In this document: in pieces, positions 17,975 to 28,187 of the stretch
How positions within the stretch are numbered: position 1 is the stretch's first letter
How the letters are laid out: every line of letters begins with the position of its first letter
Origin: Patescibacteria group bacterium UBA4664
Lineage (GTDB): Bacteria; Patescibacteriota; Saccharimonadia; CAILAD01; BJGX01
NCBI GenBank assembly: GCA_943354575.1
Contig: CALRCL010000001.1
Location: 2,934 to 66,933 of the forward strand
Length of the DNA: 64,000 bases
Reading direction: 5' to 3'
Notes under the pieces: generated by a model
What the model saw: the letters and a program-made list of their open reading frames with translations, nothing else
What the model was told of the DNA's origin: nothing
The model's database searches: none
Translations under genes and position numbers: made by a program

Positions 17975-18223
17975 CTATTTAACGGCACTTCCGATCTGTT
18001 TTATAAAGTCACCTATTACTGGAACTCCGCCGAGCTTAGAAACCAAAAAGCCAATTAAGATAATTGCCAATGCTGCGCCGAGTATGCCCGCAAAACCCCT
18101 AACGAAACCAGCTTTGAAATTTAGCCAAAATAGTTTCTTGGGGTTGGCTAGTATTTCCATGATTCCATCGAGTGAAACGATTTTTTCGGCTTTGATTGAT
18201 TGGGTTTTGGATTTATCTGACAT
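17975..18223 (-). CDS. small membrane protein (hypothetical)
   Basis: 82 aa, one central TM helix. In a cluster with YtxH/DUF948-like genes. Confidence 0.45.
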   Translation of the reverse strand: MSDKSKTQSIKAEKIVSLDGIMEILANPKKLFWLNFKAGFVRGFAGILGAALAIILIGFLVSKLGGVPVIGDFIKQIGSAVK

Positions 18224-18226
18224 CGA

Positions 18227-18745
18227 CTACTTGTCTTTTTTTAATGATTTTAGGTCTTTTTTTATTTCAGTCGAAGCGACCTTGGCTACCTTGTCGCCAG
18301 ACTCGGCAGCTTTTTTGGCGAACTCCTTGGTGTCCTTTAGCGCTCCGGTCTTGTAGCTATTGAGCTCTACCACCAATACTTTGCCGTCTTGTATCATTTT
18401 GTCGGTTTCATGGGCAGCCACCCTAGTAACTTTTTTGCCAGACTTGCCGAATTCGGCACTTTTAGTGGTCAATGCCAGCTTCAAATCTTCGGCTTGGTTA
18501 ATTAGCTCAAGTCTTTTATCTTTATCATTGCCTGTCAGGATATCGATATCTATTTTGGCTTGCTTAATTTTGGCATCAAGATCGGTACTAACCTCATGAG
18601 CCTTGATGGCGATGTCTTCGCGCAGCTCTTTGCCAGCCTTAGGTGCAAACAACAAAGCCAGTCCTCCTGCTATGGCAGCACCTACAGCAGCTCCTGTAAT
18701 AAAACCTCTTCCTCTGGCCATCTTAGCGCTTGCCTTTTTTGCCAA
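18227..18745 (-). CDS. YtxH-like general stress protein
   Basis: N-terminal GFITGAAVGAAIAGGLALLFAPKAGKELRED motif characteristic of the YtxH domain, followed by a coiled-coil tail. Confidence 0.6.
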   Translation of the reverse strand: MAKKASAKMARGRGFITGAAVGAAIAGGLALLFAPKAGKELREDIAIKAHEVSTDLDAKIKQAKIDIDILTGNDKDKRLELINQAEDLKLALTTKSAEFGKSGKKVTRVAAHETDKMIQDGKVLVVELNSYKTGALKDTKEFAKKAAESGDKVAKVASTEIKKDLKSLKKDK

Positions 18746-18983
18746 AGTGGCGCTTCAGGTATTTTTCAAACATCATCGCGACTATGCCGGGGTTAATGAC
18801 AGCACTCCTGACCTCATCGACCAATTCGGCAGCTGAGTCGGCACTCTCCTGAACCTTTGTGGCAGCCAAGCGAATTTGTTTCATCGCTGTAATTAAGCCC
18901 ACCAAGAATACTACCGTGAAGGTTATTAGTATAATTAAGGCTATCGACACTAGAGTTATAAGAACTATAAGTAATGTTTCCAT
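18723..18983 (-). CDS. DUF948-like small membrane protein
   Basis: 86 aa, N-terminal TM helix then amphipathic helix. Overlaps the YtxH gene start by 23 nt (operon). Confidence 0.45.
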   Translation of the reverse strand: METLLIVLITLVSIALIILITFTVVFLVGLITAMKQIRLAATKVQESADSAAELVDEVRSAVINPGIVAMMFEKYLKRHFGKKGKR

Positions 18984-18990
18984 TATTGGG

Positions 18991-19623
18991 TCACCCTTTC
19001 TTCTTTATTGAGCTAACTTTGCTCTTTATTGCGCTAGCTTTATTAATTATAGCACTTTGGCCCTTAGGCATTTGTGAAAAGACATGCCGCTCTATAACTA
19101 CCCACTCGTTTTTTTCTATAACACTATTTGGCACCACATGAAGCTGGCCATCTTCGCCCTGGATGCGAGTTTTTTTGATGTCCATTTCTCTTATCACTCC
19201 AATTGTCTTATGGTCTCCAACCTTGACCTTATAGCCAACCCTGAAGTCTTTGTCGTTGGCAAGCTGCAATCCAGCCATTAGGTCGCTAACTGTCGATGAT
19301 ATGCCAGACGAAAAGCCCAATAGCAAAATAGCGAACGAGCCGGTAACTGCCAGAGCAACACTAGTTAGGCCGAGTATTTGCAACACGGCAATCAGTAGTA
19401 GTCCCCACATAGCAATCCGTAGTAGTGTAGCCATTATCTCCTGGAGTCCAATCGGCCAGCGCGTCAGCCGTAGGGTGACTTTTAAAAAGCGCGATATTAT
19501 TTTAATAATGACAAAGCCTATGAGCAGTGCTACTAGAGCAGCTGGTATTTTTGGTAGTATCTGGGTAGCAGATACTGTTGCGTTATTGAAGCCTGCCAGT
19601 ACGTCGGATTGTAAATTTTGCAT
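18991..19623 (-). CDS. small MscS-family mechanosensitive channel-like protein
   Basis: Three N-terminal TM helices followed by a beta-rich domain (KVGDHKTIGVIREMDIKKTRIQGEDGQLHVVPNSVI) resembling the MscS middle domain. Confidence 0.5.
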   Translation of the reverse strand: MQNLQSDVLAGFNNATVSATQILPKIPAALVALLIGFVIIKIISRFLKVTLRLTRWPIGLQEIMATLLRIAMWGLLLIAVLQILGLTSVALAVTGSFAILLLGFSSGISSTVSDLMAGLQLANDKDFRVGYKVKVGDHKTIGVIREMDIKKTRIQGEDGQLHVVPNSVIEKNEWVVIERHVFSQMPKGQSAIINKASAIKSKVSSIKKKG

Positions 19624-19628
19624 TTATA

Positions 19629-21050
19629 TTACTCCTTTAGTAATTTAATCATAAGCTGGTTGACTTTAGAAGGGTTGGCTTGGCCTTTGGTCTGTTTCAT
19701 GACTTCGCCTACAAAGAATCCAAGCACTCGAGCATTGCCAGAGCGATAGTCATCAACGGGTTTAGGGTTATCTAATATTATTTTTTTGATGATGTTCTCG
19801 AGCTCAGAATCGTCAGAAACTTGCTTTAGCCCTTTTTGCGCCACAATGTCGCTAGGCTTGGCGCCCGCTACAATATCAGCAAAAATAGACTTGGCTATTT
19901 TGGAGCTAATGACGCCGCTTTCGACGAGCTCTATTAGCTCCGCCAGCCGCTCACCGGTTAGATGTGGCTTTTTGTTGGTGGCAAGGATAGACTGATAATC
20001 GCCGACCAGCCAATTGACAGCTTTTTTGATTAGCTCGGGTTTTTTGAGAGCACTCTCGGCATCTTTAAATATCGCAATTGTTGCAGGCTGAGCCAACAAC
20101 ACATCTTGTTCGTCGGCATTGAGGTTGAGATTGACGAGATCCTTTCGAACATCGATTGGCAAAACCGTTATTTGACTCTGGACTTGGTCGATATAACTTT
20201 GGCTTAAGGTAATTGGAGGAAGGTCTGGCTCTGGGAAATAGCGGTAGTCGTTGGCCTGCTCCTTGCTACGCTGAGAAAAAGTCACGGCCTTGGTGTCGTT
20301 CCAGCCCCTAGTTTCTTGCTCTATCACTCCACCCGACTCGAGCACCGCTATCTGGCGAGCTATCTCATAGTTTAGGGCTCTTTCGGCATTGCGAAAGGAA
20401 TTGAGGTTTTTGAGTTCGGTTCTGGTGCCGAGTGTTGAGCTATCGCTAATGGAGACATTCAGATCGAACTTAAAGTTGCCGTGCTCCATATCGCCATTAC
20501 ATACACCGAGGCTAGTAACGATATTATAGACTTCCTGCAAGTACCGCTTGGCCTGCTCGGTACTTTTAATATCTGGCTCCGATACAATCTCAGTTAGTGG
20601 GGTTCCGGCTCTGTTAAAATCGACTAGGCTGTAATCAGCTCCATCGGGGTGAGTTAGTTTGCCAGCGTCTTCCTCGAGGTGAGCATGATGAATACCAATT
20701 TTTTTGAATTCCCCGCCTACAAGTATTTCGACATAGCCGTTTTTAATAATCGGCTGATCCATTTGGGTTATCTGGTAGCCCTTGGGCGAGTCCGGATAAA
20801 AGTAATTTTTTCGGTCGAAGCTAGTGGTGCGGGCTACTTCGGCATTAAAACCTTTGGCGAGTTTGATGGCCATATCGATGGCTCCTTTGTTGATTACCGG
20901 CAAGGTGCCAGGCAGAGCCAAACAGACCGGGCAGATGTTGGTGTTGGGCAATGCGTCGCGACTGTCATTATTACACCCACAAAACATTTTGCTATTTGTG
21001 GCGAGCTGGGCGTGTATTTCGATACCGATGGTTGGTTTGTATTGACTCAT
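19629..21050 (-). CDS. gatB: Asp/Glu-tRNA amidotransferase subunit B
   Basis: MSQYKPTIGIEIHAQL...MFCGC N-terminus and C-terminal GatB/YqeY domain. Confidence 0.9.
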   Translation of the reverse strand: MSQYKPTIGIEIHAQLATNSKMFCGCNNDSRDALPNTNICPVCLALPGTLPVINKGAIDMAIKLAKGFNAEVARTTSFDRKNYFYPDSPKGYQITQMDQPIIKNGYVEILVGGEFKKIGIHHAHLEEDAGKLTHPDGADYSLVDFNRAGTPLTEIVSEPDIKSTEQAKRYLQEVYNIVTSLGVCNGDMEHGNFKFDLNVSISDSSTLGTRTELKNLNSFRNAERALNYEIARQIAVLESGGVIEQETRGWNDTKAVTFSQRSKEQANDYRYFPEPDLPPITLSQSYIDQVQSQITVLPIDVRKDLVNLNLNADEQDVLLAQPATIAIFKDAESALKKPELIKKAVNWLVGDYQSILATNKKPHLTGERLAELIELVESGVISSKIAKSIFADIVAGAKPSDIVAQKGLKQVSDDSELENIIKKIILDNPKPVDDYRSGNARVLGFFVGEVMKQTKGQANPSKVNQLMIKLLKE

Positions 21051-21051
21051 A

Positions 21052-21513
21052 TCAGATAGTTACTCCTAATTCTCGGATTGCATTGCCTAGGCTGGTTATC
21101 GCCTGCTCGACCTGGGCGGGCACCAAATCGTGCTCGACATTATGGGCCAGCTCGTTGCGCAGCTTGTGGGCGTTCCAGACGGCATTGATATTGCTAAACT
21201 GCTGGCCACCACTCTTGAGCCGCTCGCCCATGGTTTCGCCCTTGAAGCTATTGCCGACCATGCAATAATCTAGCAGCTTATCGGCCTCGAAGAGGGCTGT
21301 TTTAAGACCCGATGGGCCTGAGTTTTTCATGGCGGTTATTTCTGCCCACTTGGACTGCACCAAGCCGACATTAAAAGCACTTGGCTGATCATCACTATTG
21401 GCACTAGTTTTATACTGCTTACGAATTGGTTTGGCTTTTTGTTTGAGCGTGAGCGATATTAGTATTGTCATAACTACTAGGGCAATAAGAAACGAAATGG
21501 TAGAGATGTTCAT
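21052..21513 (-). CDS. membrane-anchored hypothetical protein with HEPN-like Rx4H motif, inserted between gatA and gatB
   Basis: N-terminal TM helix. HKLRNELAHNVEH (R119-x4-H124) matches the HEPN Rx4-6H signature. Start overlaps gatA stop (ATGA), stop is 1 nt from gatB start. Confidence 0.4.
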   Translation of the reverse strand: MNISTISFLIALVVMTILISLTLKQKAKPIRKQYKTSANSDDQPSAFNVGLVQSKWAEITAMKNSGPSGLKTALFEADKLLDYCMVGNSFKGETMGERLKSGGQQFSNINAVWNAHKLRNELAHNVEHDLVPAQVEQAITSLGNAIRELGVTI

Positions 21514-22961
21514 AGCTTTAATTCCTTAAGTTTATTGTGCCAGTTACTATCAGATTGGATGTGTTTAGCGATAGCCAAAATTTTAATATCGTCGCCTTGC
21601 TTGCCGATAATTTGCAGCCCCATAGGTAAGCCAGTTGTAGGCTCAAAACCGATAGGAATACTAATGGCTGGTACACCAGCGAGGTTTGCAAATACTGTCA
21701 GTAGGTCGGTCTTGTACATTTCGACAGGGTCGGATTTTGACCCGAGCTTAAAGGCTGGCTCGAGAGTAGTTGGTACAAGTATTGCATCGTTAGATTCAAA
21801 TACTTTATTGAGGGCTTGTATAATTAGTGTCCGAACTTGCATTGCTTTTTTGTAATAGGCGTCGTAGTAGCCGGCCGAGAGCGCGTAGGTGCCAATGATG
21901 TTGCGGCGTACTACTTCGGGGCCCAAGAATTCGCTACGGGTTTTCATGTAGCTATCTAGCAGGTCCTTGCTATCCTTAGCCTTGCTGCCGTATCTTACGC
22001 CATCGTAACGCTCCAAGTTGGAGCTGATCTCAGAAGGCACCAAGACATAGTAAGCTGCCAGGGCCAGCTCTAGTGGAACCAGCTCGGCAATACTAGCTTC
22101 GGTTTGGATATTAAGTAGGCTGCTGTCTATCGCTGCAACGCCTTTCGATACTACATTAGAATCTTCGTCGTCATAAAAGACTGCTTTTAGCTTGCCGACG
22201 GGCTTTTTGTCGCGAGGAGTTTTGTCGCTCAAGGCTATGGTGGTGGAATCCTTGCTATCCTTGCCGGCAATAACTTCAAAGACTATCTGTGCATCTTTGG
22301 CAGACCGAGCCACAGGGCCAACGCAATCAAAGCTACTGGCCATCGCAATTACTCCATACCGACTAACAACTCCGTAGGTTGGCTTAAAGCCTGTTACCCC
22401 GCAATAGCTGGCTGGCTGGCGAATTGAACCACCGGTATCAGTACCTAGGCTAAATATACCAAAGTCTGCCGCCACCGATGCGGCCGAGCCGCCCGAACTT
22501 CCGCCCGGCACTCGGTCGAGGTCCCAGGGGTTATGTGTGACATGATAAGAACTATTTTCGGTGCTGCCACCGTGCGCGAATTCGTCCTGATTGACCTTGG
22601 CAATCAAGACTGCTCCAGCTTGGTCGAGTTTTTCGATAACAGTTGCTGAGTAAGGCGGAATATAATCTTCCAGTATCTTACTGGCAGCCGTGGTTCGGAT
22701 TCCTTTAGTCAAGAACATATCTTTGGCGGTATAAGGAATGCCTTCGAGCAGCCCAATCTCTGCCCCGCTGGCGATTTTGGTATCGACCTTTTTGGCTTGC
22801 TTTAGGGCTTGGCTTTCGCAGACTGTCAGAATGGCACGGATTTTTGGGTTTAGATTACGGATTTTACCAATGTAAAATTCAGTCAGCTCTTGGGCCGAAA
22901 TCTTTTTGGCTACTAGTAGCTCATGAGCTTCTGTAATAGATAAATAATTCAAGTCGGGCAT
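21510..22961 (-). CDS. gatA: Glu-tRNA(Gln) amidotransferase subunit A (amidase)
   Basis: Amidase signature GGSSGGSAASVAA. Start taken at internal Met (MPDLNYL...) whose ATG overlaps the gatC TAA by 1 nt (TAATG). The upstream 35 codons of the ORF would overlap gatC. Confidence 0.9.
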   Translation of the reverse strand: MPDLNYLSITEAHELLVAKKISAQELTEFYIGKIRNLNPKIRAILTVCESQALKQAKKVDTKIASGAEIGLLEGIPYTAKDMFLTKGIRTTAASKILEDYIPPYSATVIEKLDQAGAVLIAKVNQDEFAHGGSTENSSYHVTHNPWDLDRVPGGSSGGSAASVAADFGIFSLGTDTGGSIRQPASYCGVTGFKPTYGVVSRYGVIAMASSFDCVGPVARSAKDAQIVFEVIAGKDSKDSTTIALSDKTPRDKKPVGKLKAVFYDDEDSNVVSKGVAAIDSSLLNIQTEASIAELVPLELALAAYYVLVPSEISSNLERYDGVRYGSKAKDSKDLLDSYMKTRSEFLGPEVVRRNIIGTYALSAGYYDAYYKKAMQVRTLIIQALNKVFESNDAILVPTTLEPAFKLGSKSDPVEMYKTDLLTVFANLAGVPAISIPIGFEPTTGLPMGLQIIGKQGDDIKILAIAKHIQSDSNWHNKLKELKL

Positions 22962-23251
22962 TATAGTACCTTCTTGACCTTTACATAACCATCCTGCATG
23001 TCTGGTGTGCTGGCTAACAAAAGTTTTGGAGCGATTGCGCATTTCTCGACCAAGTCTTCGCGCCATACATCGGTAAGCCCGGTGACCTGAGAGGTTAGCT
23101 CGACGCCGGCCGTATCGGTGTTTTGTATGGTATCGACAAAATCCAAAATCGAGCTAATCTCGCTGCTGGCTACTACTAGCTCGTCGTCGGATAGCTCAAT
23201 TCTGGCTAGCAGTGCAACCTTTTGTATTTCGTCTAATGATAACTTTGCCAT
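22961..23251 (-). CDS. gatC: Glu-tRNA(Gln) amidotransferase subunit C
   Basis: MAKLSLDEIQKVALLARIEL..., 96 aa, typical GatC. Confidence 0.85.
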   Translation of the reverse strand: MAKLSLDEIQKVALLARIELSDDELVVASSEISSILDFVDTIQNTDTAGVELTSQVTGLTDVWREDLVEKCAIAPKLLLASTPDMQDGYVKVKKVL

Positions 23252-23296: not shown

Positions 23297-24031
23297 TTAT
23301 TTTGCCGAGGAGGCCTGGGGAGCAACTATAAAGGCCAAAATAATTGCATAAATAATTGCAAAACCACACATTACCGACGGTATTGCTAGCTCAGACGATG
23401 GGATTATCCAGTATACAATTCCGGTCGGGACTAGAAACGATAGGGTTCCGATACCGAGCCAGTGTAGTGAGTTGCGCCTAACTTTAGATTTTTGTTTTCT
23501 AGACATCACAAAAACAATTGCGAGGGTTATCAATAGTAGCCCAAAGTAATAGCTAGAGTATACAGCCGTGGCTGTTTCGGATAATGCAAATATTACATAA
23601 TTGCCGGTGCATATTGAGTTATTGATAGCACTTGGGGCAAAACCAAAAAATACCGCAAAGCCCGTTGCCGTAAGTAGCACCAAGGCGCTCGACCAATGGT
23701 TTTTGCGGCCAGATATTTCGTTGGCCAACGTAACTCCTAGGGCCGGCAAAAAAGTAATTGCCACAAAGCCTACGCGCGAGGATACATCAGTAATGAAGCT
23801 GCTATAGCTTCCACAAACAGAAAATTCGGCGAGCTGAAATACTGCTAGCAAAACTAATGAAGCCGAAATAATATTCTTAATCCTCGAGGGCTTGATGCGC
23901 AAAAAAGTATATATCGCCAGAGCAATCTCGACGACGAAGGTAATTATCATCACCAGAGGGCTGAAGCAATATAGGGTATTTTTGTTTCGAGTGGTTGATT
24001 TTTTTGTTTGTTTTTTATTAATTTGAATCAT
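23297..24031 (-). CDS. polytopic membrane protein (hypothetical)
   Basis: 244 aa, at least 6 predicted TM helices, no recognisable motif. Confidence 0.5.
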   Translation of the reverse strand: MIQINKKQTKKSTTRNKNTLYCFSPLVMIITFVVEIALAIYTFLRIKPSRIKNIISASLVLLAVFQLAEFSVCGSYSSFITDVSSRVGFVAITFLPALGVTLANEISGRKNHWSSALVLLTATGFAVFFGFAPSAINNSICTGNYVIFALSETATAVYSSYYFGLLLITLAIVFVMSRKQKSKVRRNSLHWLGIGTLSFLVPTGIVYWIIPSSELAIPSVMCGFAIIYAIILAFIVAPQASSAK

Positions 24032-24052: not shown

Positions 24053-26059
24053 TCACAAAGCGAGCTTTTTGATAAATCCCCTCTCATCTAAGGTGGTCAC
24101 GCCCAGGCTTTTGGCCTTATCGTACTTGCTACCCGGGTCTGCCCCATAAACAACATAGCTAGTCTGGCTGCTGACTGAGTTGGTTACCTGCCCTCCTCGC
24201 GCTCGTACTTTTGCGCTTGCTTCTTCCCGGCTTAGCGAGCTCAGAGTTCCTGTAAAAACCCAGGTTGTAGAGGTCAGTTCGCCTTTGGCTTTTGGCTTGG
24301 CGGTGGCAACTACGACTCCGTGGGCTAGCAGCTGCTCAACAAGGCTAATGTTTTTAGGCTGCCCAAGCCAACCGATGAGCGAATCTGACACGACACCACC
24401 AACTCCGTCAATACTAGCCAAATCGTCGGGCTGAGCAACCAAAAACTTGGCTAGGCTGTGGTAGTGCTGGGCTATATCGTTGGCGGTTTTGGACCCGACA
24501 TGGCGAATACCTAGGGCGTATATAAATCTCCCTAGCCCCACTTTGGAGTGCTCATTAATAGAGTCGATAAGGTTCTGAGCTGAGGTTTCGGCGAACCTCT
24601 CGAGGCCAAGCAGATCGTCTTTGGTTAGTTTAAAAATATCGACGGCGCTAGCAACTAGCCCTTCTTCCATTAATTGAGCTAGGATCTTCTCGCCCAGACC
24701 ATCAATATCGAAAGCCGATTTTGATACAAAATGTATAAGCTGTTGCCAGCGTATTTCGCCGGTTTGCAAATCTGCCAGTCGAGCCACTGCCTCACCGGCG
24801 GGGCGCACCACAGCAACTCCATCGATGCTGGTTGGCATTTTCCATATTTTTTCATTTCCGGTTCTGAGCTTGGTGATAGGCTCAATCACTTCGGGGATAA
24901 TATCGCCAGCCTTTTGAATTATTACGGTATCACCAATGCGCAGGTCCTTGCGCGCAACTTCGTCTTCATTATGGAGGGTGGCACGCCTAACGGTACTGCC
25001 AGCCACATTGACCGGCGTCAAAACTGCATAAGGTGTAACTGCCCCCGTCCGCCCAATGCTAACTCTAATGTCTTCAAGTATTGTAGTGGCGGTTTCGGCC
25101 GGGTACTTGTAGGCGACGGCGCCACGAGGTGCCTTGCCGGCCACGCCGAGTGACTCAAATTCGGCATTATCATTGATGGTAATGACGAGTCCGTCGGTCT
25201 GGTACGGCAATTTCTGGCGCTCGCCAGACCACTTGTCAATATAAGATCGAATCTCTGCCACACTCGATACAACTTGGTCGTTTGGCTCCACCATAAAGCC
25301 GAGCTCGCGGGCCATATTGTGCTCGTCTTCATGGCTGGTTAGGCCTGGCAGATCCATCTCTACTGCGTAGGCAACAAATTTTAGATTACGGCTGGCGGCT
25401 ACTGCTGGGTCAAGCTGTCGGACAGTACCCGCTCCGGCGTTACGCGGGTTAGCAAATAATGGCAGGCCATCTTTGGCTCGCTGAATGTTGATATTGTCAA
25501 AATCTTTTTTGGGTATTATGACCTCTCCGCGGATTTCAAAAAAATCATAAACCTCAGCCGAGACCTTATCACTTTGGCGCAACTTTAGTGGTACGGTCTG
25601 AATTGTCTTAACGGTATGGGTAACGTCTTCGCCGATCTTTCCGTCGCCGCGCGTTATAGCGCGCACAAACAGGCCTTTTTCGTACTGCAGTGCCATAGCC
25701 AGACCATCCATCTTGAGCTCTATATAATATTCGAGCTTAGTTTTTTGGGTGAGCTTATGAACGCGCTGCTCCCAAGCCTCTAGCTCGGCAATATCGAAAA
25801 CGTCATTTAAGCTGAGCATTGGGCGTTGGTGTGGGATACTTTTAAATTTTGCCGAGGCCTTACCGCCGACTCTCTGAGTTGGTGAATCGGGCATTATTAA
25901 TTCAGGATAGGCAGCTTCGATTTTGGCTAATTCGCGGGTTAGGCTTTGATAAACCTCATCTGTAACCGACGGATCTCCTAGCACATGGTAGCGGTAGCGG
26001 TAGTCATTAATTACGCCAGACAGCTCTTTGGCTCTGTCCTTGGCCTGGTCTTTATTCAT
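24053..26059 (-). CDS. ligA: NAD-dependent DNA ligase
   Basis: Adenylation motif KMDGLAM (KxDG), OB fold, Zn finger, HhH, C-terminal BRCT. Confidence 0.95.
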   Translation of the reverse strand: MNKDQAKDRAKELSGVINDYRYRYHVLGDPSVTDEVYQSLTRELAKIEAAYPELIMPDSPTQRVGGKASAKFKSIPHQRPMLSLNDVFDIAELEAWEQRVHKLTQKTKLEYYIELKMDGLAMALQYEKGLFVRAITRGDGKIGEDVTHTVKTIQTVPLKLRQSDKVSAEVYDFFEIRGEVIIPKKDFDNINIQRAKDGLPLFANPRNAGAGTVRQLDPAVAASRNLKFVAYAVEMDLPGLTSHEDEHNMARELGFMVEPNDQVVSSVAEIRSYIDKWSGERQKLPYQTDGLVITINDNAEFESLGVAGKAPRGAVAYKYPAETATTILEDIRVSIGRTGAVTPYAVLTPVNVAGSTVRRATLHNEDEVARKDLRIGDTVIIQKAGDIIPEVIEPITKLRTGNEKIWKMPTSIDGVAVVRPAGEAVARLADLQTGEIRWQQLIHFVSKSAFDIDGLGEKILAQLMEEGLVASAVDIFKLTKDDLLGLERFAETSAQNLIDSINEHSKVGLGRFIYALGIRHVGSKTANDIAQHYHSLAKFLVAQPDDLASIDGVGGVVSDSLIGWLGQPKNISLVEQLLAHGVVVATAKPKAKGELTSTTWVFTGTLSSLSREEASAKVRARGGQVTNSVSSQTSYVVYGADPGSKYDKAKSLGVTTLDERGFIKKLAL

Positions 26060-27640: not shown

Positions 27641-27726
27641 TGGTGGGCAAGGAGGGACTCGAACCCTCAATCCTTAAAGGAAACGGATTTTAAGTCCGTC
27701 GTGTATACCAATTCCACCACTCGCCC
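27641..27726 (-). tRNA. tRNA-Leu (anticodon TAA)
   Basis: Manual fold: acceptor GGGCGAG/CTTGCCC, D-arm, anticodon stem ACGGA/TCCGT with loop CTTAAAA, long variable arm, T-arm GAGGG-TTCGAGT-CCCTC, encoded CCA. Confidence 0.9.
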
Positions 27727-27746
27727 ATGGTAGTTGTGTATTCTTA

Positions 27747-27820
27747 TGGAGGCGCGTACCGGATTTGAACCGGTGTAGAAGGTTTTGCAGACCTTTGCCT
27801 AACCACTCGGCCAACGCGCC
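27747..27820 (-). tRNA. tRNA-Cys (anticodon GCA)
   Basis: Manual fold: acceptor GGCGCGT/ACGCGCC, anticodon stem AAGGT/ACCTT with loop CTGCAAA, T-arm ACCGG-TTCAAAT-CCGGT, discriminator U, CCA. Confidence 0.9.
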
Positions 27821-28004
27821 CCGTGCCATATATTATACCTTGCTTGCTTAATCTGTAAAAGGGTAGAAATTTAGCGGACTTTTTGGTATGATTAGTCGCG
27901 TACTTTGCTCTTTCAAATATCCTTAAATGGCACGCTTTTTATAATTCAATTCAAAATTACTAGCCAATTGAATATAAATGCCGTAGCATTATTGAAGTAA
28001 CAAT

Positions 28005-28080
28005 GGCGGGATAGCTCAGTTGGTAGAGCAGTGGCTTGAAGAGCCTCGTGTCCTCGGTTCGAATCCGAGTCTCGCCACCA
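28005..28080 (+). tRNA. tRNA-Phe (anticodon GAA)
   Basis: Manual fold: acceptor GGCGGGA/TCTCGCC, D-arm GCTC-AGTTGGTA-GAGC, anticodon loop TTGAAGA, T-arm CTCGG-TTCGAAT-CCGAG, CCA. One U-U mismatch in the anticodon stem. Confidence 0.85.
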
Positions 28081-28110
28081 AAGATTATTCTTTTAATTAA
28101 ATTACACCAT

Positions 28111-28187
28111 GCGGGTGTAGCTCAGTTGTTTAGAGCGCTTCCTTGCCAAGGAAGAGGTCGAGAGTTAGAGTCTCTTCACCCGCACCA
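28111..28187 (+). tRNA. tRNA-Gly (anticodon GCC), integration target of the downstream island
   Basis: Manual fold: acceptor GCGGGTG/CACCCGC, anticodon stem CTTCC/GGAAG with loop TTGCCAA, CCA. D-loop AGTTGTTTA and T-loop TTAGAGT show a U19:A56 covariation. The last 9 nt are shared with the serine recombinase CDS. Confidence 0.9.

Follow-up and report, generated by a model that had tools for sequence, protein, structure and literature searches.

An open reading frame between gatA and gatB

The stretch of DNA analysed here (the window) spans 64,000 nucleotides of contig CALRCL010000001.1 from Patescibacteria group bacterium UBA4664 and carries the genes for the three subunits of the tRNA-dependent amidotransferase GatCAB. 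Between gatA and gatB lies an open reading frame (ORF) for a protein of 153 residues, which we call X and which is the subject of this study (Table 1). Reading the junctions directly confirms this arrangement, which the original prediction had described together with a tight coupling of the ORF to both flanking genes: the ATG of X (21513-21511) shares bases with the TGA stop codon of gatA (21512-21510), giving a 4-nt ATGA overlap, and the TGA stop codon of X (21054-21052) is separated by a single nucleotide from the ATG of gatB (21050-21048). The stop codon of gatC and the likely start of gatA (ATG at 22961) overlap by 1 nt, and so gatC, gatA, X and gatB are packed without intergenic space.

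The longest possible gatA ORF reaches 23066, which adds 35 codons and produces a 106-nt overlap with gatC. The ATG at 22961 (MPDLNYL...) is the likely start, as the same N-terminus is found at the matching position in L003, the closest genome to the window. An AAGGA within the 3′ end of gatA may be a Shine-Dalgarno-like element for X. Promoter- or terminator-like sites are not in excess in the gat block, and no GC anomaly was found there.

Table 1 Features of the gat locus and its surroundings in the window.
Feature	Positions	Strand	Description
X (ORF under study)	21052..21513	minus	153 aa; predicted bitopic membrane protein with a cytoplasmic HEPN-fold domain
N-terminal transmembrane (TM) helix of X	21436..21507	minus	Residues 3-26; AF2 helix, mean Kyte-Doolittle 2.57
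Predicted HEPN-fold domain of X	21070..21369	minus	Residues 49-148
Rx4H motif R119-N-E-L-A-H124	21142..21159	minus	C-terminal end of helix 3; within HKLRNELAHN
AAGGA, possibly Shine-Dalgarno-like	21523..21527	minus	9 nt 5′ of X ATG, within gatA 3′ end; read from sequence
gatA	21510..22961	minus	483 aa from ATG at 22961; Pfam Amidase E 1.2e-133
gatC	22961..23251	minus	96 aa; Pfam GatC E 4e-14
gatB	19629..21050	minus	473 aa; Pfam GatB_N E 6e-114, GatB_Yqey E 4e-40
ligA	24053..26059	minus	Upstream neighbour of the gatC-gatA-X block; from ORF list
MscS-like	18991-19623	minus	Downstream of gatB
86-aa TM protein	18723-18983	minus	Downstream of gatB
YtxH	18227-18745	minus	Downstream of gatB
DUF5665	17975-18223	minus	Downstream of gatB; recurs in L001

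A predicted HEPN domain on a membrane anchor

The original prediction had assigned X to the HEPN domains from the motif in HKLRNELAHN and had proposed a Pfam search as a check. X itself has no Pfam match at E≤10, but a few relatives weakly match HEPN_Swt1 (3 of 51 diverse members, best E 1.6e-4). The same 51 members include three that match HEPN_RiboL-PSP and two that match Hypoth_Ymh, and DUF4145 is not among the 25 listed of the 69 Pfam families that they matched. Three consensus sequences of the X family gave no significant Pfam match (best E 0.04), and searches with X of NCBIfam, PADLOC, PHROGs (nothing below E 0.09) and PDB sequences (by phmmer and with a family profile) returned nothing usable. 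The X family is covered by no Pfam model and is unnamed.

The AF2 model of X, made with a 37-sequence alignment, has a pLDDT of 84, with values above 90 across most of the globular part. It comprises the TM helix (residues 3-26), a disordered basic linker, and helices at residues 49-63, 67-87, 95-105, 109-124 and 132-148. We assign residues 49-63 to HEPN helix 1, 67-87 (with D78) to helix 2, 109-124 to helix 3 and 132-148 to helix 4. Between helices 2 and 3 is an insert, residues 88-108, which includes the helix 95-105 and the sequence GETMGERLK, conserved in the family as GxTMGxRLK. A second, independent AF2 model, of a Paceibacteria member 30% identical to X, has a pLDDT of 88.7. The best Foldseek matches are the HEPN toxin 7ae6 and 2hsb, and the agreement with the HEPN fold in this search is weak because the TM helix draws membrane proteins. 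In the structure searches, the nearest solved structures to X include the HepT-type toxins 5yep, 8xdj and 7ae2. HepT toxins include tRNA-cleaving enzymes.

The Rx4H motif itself is present as originally read, and the predicted fold supports its assignment to HEPN, although the motif alone is not significant: 7.4% of shuffles of X contain an Rx4H, as do 15 of the window's 43 long ORFs, and a stricter R[NDH]x3H occurs in 0.8% of X shuffles. A survey of HEPN domains found that Rx4-6H occurs where helix 3 ends or the loop between helices 3 and 4 begins, that the residue after the Arg is usually Asn, Asp or His, that helix 2 carries a conserved acidic residue, often in an Ex3[KR] context, and that inserts between helices 2 and 3 occur (PMC3710099). 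The position of the X motif, the polar Asn after its Arg and the insert between helices 2 and 3 fit the published definition; D78 lies in helix 2, where the local sequence, EADKLLD, matches Ex3[KR] inexactly.

Residues D78, G92, W113, H116, R119, N120 and H124 are invariant in 51 representatives at 25-56% identity and likewise in the distant alignments A3 and A4, while R119, N120 and H124 are invariant in all of alignments A1, A2, A3 and A4. Both W113 and H116 are located on helix 3, two turns and one turn upstream of the R119-H124 motif, and their spacing with R119/N120 (i, i+3, i+6/7) suggests that these residues line one face of the helix. Taken as predicted from the models, X has a HEPN fold with an intact catalytic-type motif.

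The N-terminal TM helix, which the original prediction had also noted, is borne out by the AF2 helix and by its hydropathy, and a basic stretch, KQKAKPIRKQYK, follows it. This pattern is widespread: 85 of 89 non-identical family members have a 19-residue window with a mean Kyte-Doolittle value of at least 1.6, and Lys and Arg together average 0.4 in the 12 residues ahead of the TM helix and 3.9 in the 12 that come behind. Positive charge is greater after the helix in 82 of the 89. By the positive-inside rule, X is predicted to have its N-terminus outside and its C-terminus inside, with the HEPN domain in the cytoplasm, where RNA and GatCAB are.

A Patescibacteria family fixed behind gatA

Homologues of X are numerous: a word-indexed search found 1209, all unnamed or "hypothetical" and with named sources mostly Saccharibacteria, and an exhaustive profile search found 2654 cluster representatives (50% identity) at E≤1e-3 and 1546 at E≤1e-10. 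Of the 150 representatives listed, nearly all have 100-230 residues. Comparison with L003, whose X is 92% identical in amino acid sequence, gives a ratio of nonsynonymous to synonymous substitution rates (dN/dS) of 0.17, with values of 0.10 for gatA and 0.09 for gatB. X is under purifying selection. We regard X as a real gene because of these homologues, cluster representatives and dN/dS and because of the predicted fold, and not for the motif alone.

We examined the genomic surroundings of the best 80 of 494 and the best 80 of 535 confirmed matches. The first set consists of 80 genome loci with identities of 30-92% and two additional ones; most are from Saccharibacteria, and the others include Berkelbacteria, Kazan, Uhrbacteria, one Parcubacteria metagenome-assembled genome (MAG) and an oral Nanosyncoccus. 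gatA is directly upstream of X on the same strand in 80 of these 82 loci; in the other two, fewer than 450 nt upstream are available. gatB is directly downstream in most, and ligA is upstream of gatC in most related loci.

Other genes have entered the gat operon in some of these genomes. At about 15 loci, 0.5-2.3 kb of housekeeping genes (histidine phosphatase, NUDIX, PNPOx-like, HAD) lie between X and gatB, several of them among L029-L078, and at three loci (L052, L058 and L062) a gene for a NUDIX protein or a TM-anchored cyclophilin-type peptidyl-prolyl isomerase lies between gatA and X.

The second set represents a distant, Paceibacteria-type branch of the family (Staskawiczbacteria, Sungbacteria, "Paceibacterota"), whose members are 160-230 residues long and have a longer N-terminus. 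Gene calls on six long Paceibacteria contigs gave the same order in all six, ligA-...-gatC-gatA-X, followed by unrelated genes. Among the 80 Paceibacteria-type metagenome loci, gatA is directly upstream of X in all 56 that have at least 1.5 kb of upstream sequence, and a partial gatA is present in 24 of the 30 shorter loci, the remaining six having at most 525 nt upstream. By contrast, gatB is downstream of X in none of the 52 Paceibacteria-type loci (within L083-L168) with at least 2 kb of downstream sequence, and is not found within 4-5 kb. The conserved partner of X is therefore gatC-gatA, not gatB: in this branch gatB has parted from gatCA and X has remained.

The close junction seen in the window is also common in the family. 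Across 154 loci, the start of X and the gatA stop codon overlap by 4 nt in 59 cases, 1 nt in another 13 and some other length in 25; in 42 the start lies 0-15 nt downstream of the stop, so that 139 of the 154 overlap or fall within 15 nt. The start was taken as the nearest candidate start codon in frame, which biases these distances toward small values, and the 4-nt class is far above chance. Its junctions suggest that X is usually translationally coupled to gatA.

In all, X-bearing loci (about 160) come from Saccharibacteria, Berkelbacteria, Kazan, Uhrbacteria and Paceibacteria, and gatA precedes X at each of them that has upstream sequence. Within this sampling, the family is restricted to Patescibacteria, or Candidate Phyla Radiation (CPR), and X is inherited vertically as an ancient part of the gat operon. 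Presence in relatives had been set as a check by the original prediction, which regarded the ORF as unusually wedged into the operon; rather than an intrusion, X is a fixture after gatA across the Patescibacteria lineages sampled. A horizontal insertion was considered and rejected, given the lack of a GC anomaly and the universal synteny. The association of X with gatA is unusually strict and deep, and it lies in an essential pathway.

Some X loci carry foreign labels in public databases: L036, L045, L057, L068, L069, L082 and protein P0014 show a Patescibacteria-type operon, and the labels given to such loci include Nanoarchaeia, Gemmatimonadaceae, Magnetospirillaceae, Gammaproteobacteria and Chryseobacterium MAGs. 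L036 ("Nanoarchaeia") also has a bacterial dnaE, 59% identical to dnaE of the window. These contigs are probably mis-binned, and not occurrences outside CPR. One member of alignment A2, P0126, has a ferredoxin-like segment, CIGSGTCHAIA, in place of the TM helix and first HEPN helix, and is presumably the A2 member that matched a 4Fe-4S Pfam family; it is a rare fusion, unless the assembly or the gene call is chimeric.

Possible function of X beside GatCA

Full-text literature searches for HEPN domains with GatCAB, for gatA or gatB in Saccharibacteria, and for HEPN domains in Patescibacteria or CPR returned nothing relevant. The X family is a new, unmodelled HEPN family in an unprecedented housekeeping context. 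Among known groups, it is most readily compared with the Swt1/Abi2/DUF4145-like clade (PMC3710099), with which it shares the four-helix core, the insert between helices 2 and 3 and the few weak matches to HEPN_Swt1. Unlike that clade, X reaches no Pfam HEPN model, DUF4145 included, adds the invariant W113 and H116 and the GxTMGxRLK sequence, and is found in a housekeeping rather than a conflict-system context. HepT-type toxins differ from X in having an adjacent minimal nucleotidyltransferase (MNT) gene and a Tyr acceptor after the His, whereas X is anchored in the membrane by its N-terminus and keeps to one chromosomal place in an essential operon.

Membrane-bound HEPN proteins have been described before. 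A 2013 survey recognized three architectures that combine HEPN and TM segments, namely DUF4145 with WP-TM, Abi2/Swt1 with TM, and HEPN-2TM-Zn-ribbon, and proposed that membrane HEPN proteins process RNA at the membrane (PMC3710099). X resembles these in having an inner-membrane anchor and a HEPN domain predicted to be cytoplasmic, but it lacks the WP signature, the preceding globular helical domain and the Zn-ribbon, and none of the described architectures was tied to gatCAB or to Patescibacteria (PMC3710099). X also recalls RNase Y and eukaryotic Ire1/KEN, in which a TM helix at the N-terminus is joined to an RNase domain in the cytoplasm. This is an analogy only: the catalytic domain of RNase Y (HD/KH) is unrelated, and Saccharibacteria own a separate RNase Y. 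Csx28, the Cas13b accessory protein, is another small protein with one N-terminal TM helix and a divergent HEPN domain, and forms a CRISPR-associated membrane pore. The neighbours of X, unlike those of Csx28, are gat genes, and Csx28 is not among the top 60 structural matches listed.

Published data from the saccharibacterium Southlakia epibionticum bear on the importance of X. Its gene SEML1_0535, a 420-bp "hypothetical protein" gene, is located between gatA (0536) and gatB (0534), overlapping them by 4 nt and 1 nt, carries the flags of a core and Patescibacteria-enriched family (Table S1) and is labelled DUF4145 by ProtNLM (PMC10633639). In transposon sequencing (Tn-seq), it received the calls GD/GD/ES (Table S1): eight insertions in the input DNA fell to 5, 3 and 1 at T0, T1 and T2, and normalised reads fell from 126.6 to 5.9 and 2.8 over these time points, while non-essential neighbours of similar size kept 200-600 reads (PMC10633639). 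The main text of that study does not mention the gene, which appears only in uncommented supplementary rows. No glutaminyl- or asparaginyl-tRNA synthetase is annotated for Southlakia in the tables of PMC10633639; GatCAB is therefore its sole route to Gln-tRNA and Asn-tRNA and indispensable.

The reading that we prefer, with moderate confidence, is that X is a housekeeping, membrane-tethered HEPN RNase or RNA-binding module whose function is tied to GatCA(B). The single N-terminal TM helix would place the HEPN domain, of about 100 residues, on the cytoplasmic face of the membrane. There, X may act as a metal-independent endoribonuclease, or at least as an RNA-binding module, and by analogy with other HEPN enzymes it probably works as a dimer. 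Gene order suggests that this function is coupled, physically or functionally, to the GatCA(B) amidotransferase. The most plausible substrates would be tRNA-Gln, tRNA-Asn or their mischarged forms, or else RNAs handled beside the membrane; according to one preprint, tRNAs are recurrent HEPN substrates (bioRxiv 10.64898/2025.12.03.690598). If this reading is true, X would be a previously undescribed companion of GatCAB, probably critical for fitness, and a housekeeping use of a domain known in bacteria almost only from conflict systems (toxin-antitoxin, abortive infection (Abi) and CRISPR accessories). The family also bears on the role of the "Patescibacteria-enriched essential unknowns", and because Southlakia is genetically tractable the hypothesis is directly testable.

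Several points weigh against this interpretation. RNase activity of X is a prediction, and since at least one HEPN toxin has a catalytic site other than RX4H (PMC11586414), conservation of the motif in X is suggestive only. The link to GatCAB comes from gene order alone; ligA-gatCAB is itself a synteny of long standing and inert, in which a passenger gene could become locked by translational coupling. If expressed at all times and lacking an inhibitor, a HEPN RNase would have to be regulated or narrowly specific. Weaker members of the family, beyond the best-matching loci, might sit elsewhere. On the side of the Southlakia data, SEML1_0535 is taken as the orthologue of X from its position, size and domain annotation and not from sequence, its depletion may be a polar effect on the essential gatB, and its call rests on few insertions (8 in the input, 5 at T0) and on a hidden Markov model caller that smooths over neighbours.

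A more specific form of the idea, which we put forward only tentatively, would make X a fourth component of the Patescibacteria amidotransferase: anchored in the membrane, it would be a HEPN nuclease or a subunit that binds tRNA, and would survey or process tRNA-Gln and tRNA-Asn. X would then couple GatCA(B) to the membrane and, for example, remove mischarged or damaged forms of these tRNAs. Were this true, bacteria would have in X a rare example of a HEPN RNase that is essential and serves housekeeping, and X would be a change to a universal translation pathway that defines the lineage. The HEPN fold might instead serve as a non-catalytic adaptor that binds protein, tRNA or nucleotide. X would then be, in effect, an additional subunit by which GatCA(B) or the transamidosome is tethered or regulated at the membrane. 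We consider this rather unlikely. The example noted above shows that a conserved motif is no proof of catalysis (PMC11586414), but non-catalytic HEPN domains typically lose the Rx4-6H (PMC3710099), whereas the X family keeps the Arg, Asn, His and helix-2 acid invariant, and an interaction with GatCA(B) is itself a prediction only.

It is unlikelier still that X is a passenger, an active membrane RNase with another job, for example in processing rRNA or mRNA, whose position is kept only by translational coupling or by the inertia of the operon. Such inertia exists at this locus, with ligA-gatC-gatA a frozen synteny of no obvious functional logic, with unrelated NUDIX, His-phosphatase, HAD and cyclophilin genes having entered the same operon in some lineages, and with gatB having left it in Paceibacteria. 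Against this, X has stayed after gatA in every testable locus despite a very deep divergence, down to 25-30% identity, while gatB and other genes moved, which goes beyond usual inertia. Nor is a general RNase slot obviously vacant, as Saccharibacteria already encode RNases Y, J and III. Southlakia has RNase Y (NE/NE/GD), RNase J and RNase III (PMC10633639 tables), and this led us to reject X as the replacement of a missing general membrane RNase. We likewise rejected the idea that X compensates for a truncated GatB, which has both its catalytic and YqeY tail domains.

The original prediction had offered two options, a toxin-like or a tRNA-processing accessory. The second comes close to the reading preferred here and may hold; the first is not supported. 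That X is a HEPN toxin of a toxin-antitoxin or Abi system which landed in the gat operon is highly improbable and already largely refuted, for all that HEPN domains are mostly RNases of conflict systems (PMC3710099) and HepT-type toxins are among the nearest solved structures. No MNT or other antitoxin gene is present at the roughly 160 loci, where the neighbours are gatA, gatB or variable housekeeping genes; the genes found between gatA and X or between X and gatB were considered as possible partners or antitoxins and are only the variable His-phosphatase, NUDIX, PNPOx-like, HAD and cyclophilin genes. X lacks the Tyr of the RX4HXY motif used for AMPylation: H124 is followed by N-V in X, and the family consensus is H-E-V/I. 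PADLOC gave no match, and a search of 2.9 million viral contigs found no relatives. Also speaking against a toxin are the constant place of X within an essential operon in every Patescibacteria lineage sampled, purifying selection and the depletion, rather than tolerance, of insertions in Southlakia.

Around the gat genes, the window holds further genes. Downstream of gatB and before dnaE is a run of small membrane proteins (17975-19623; Table 1), and a YtxH gene adjoins the gat operon of Southlakia too. In the window, the vicinity of the gat operon has no gene for tRNA-Gln or tRNA-Asn; a cluster of four tRNA genes, for Leu-TAA, Cys-GCA, Phe-GAA and Gly-GCC, occupies both strands at 27641-28187. 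Between ligA and gatC is a gene for a 244-residue, multi-pass hydrophobic protein with no Pfam match (23297-24031, minus strand), to which we liken, by size only, a gene of L001 for a 255-residue protein that also has no Pfam match and is located directly upstream of ligA, overlapping its start.
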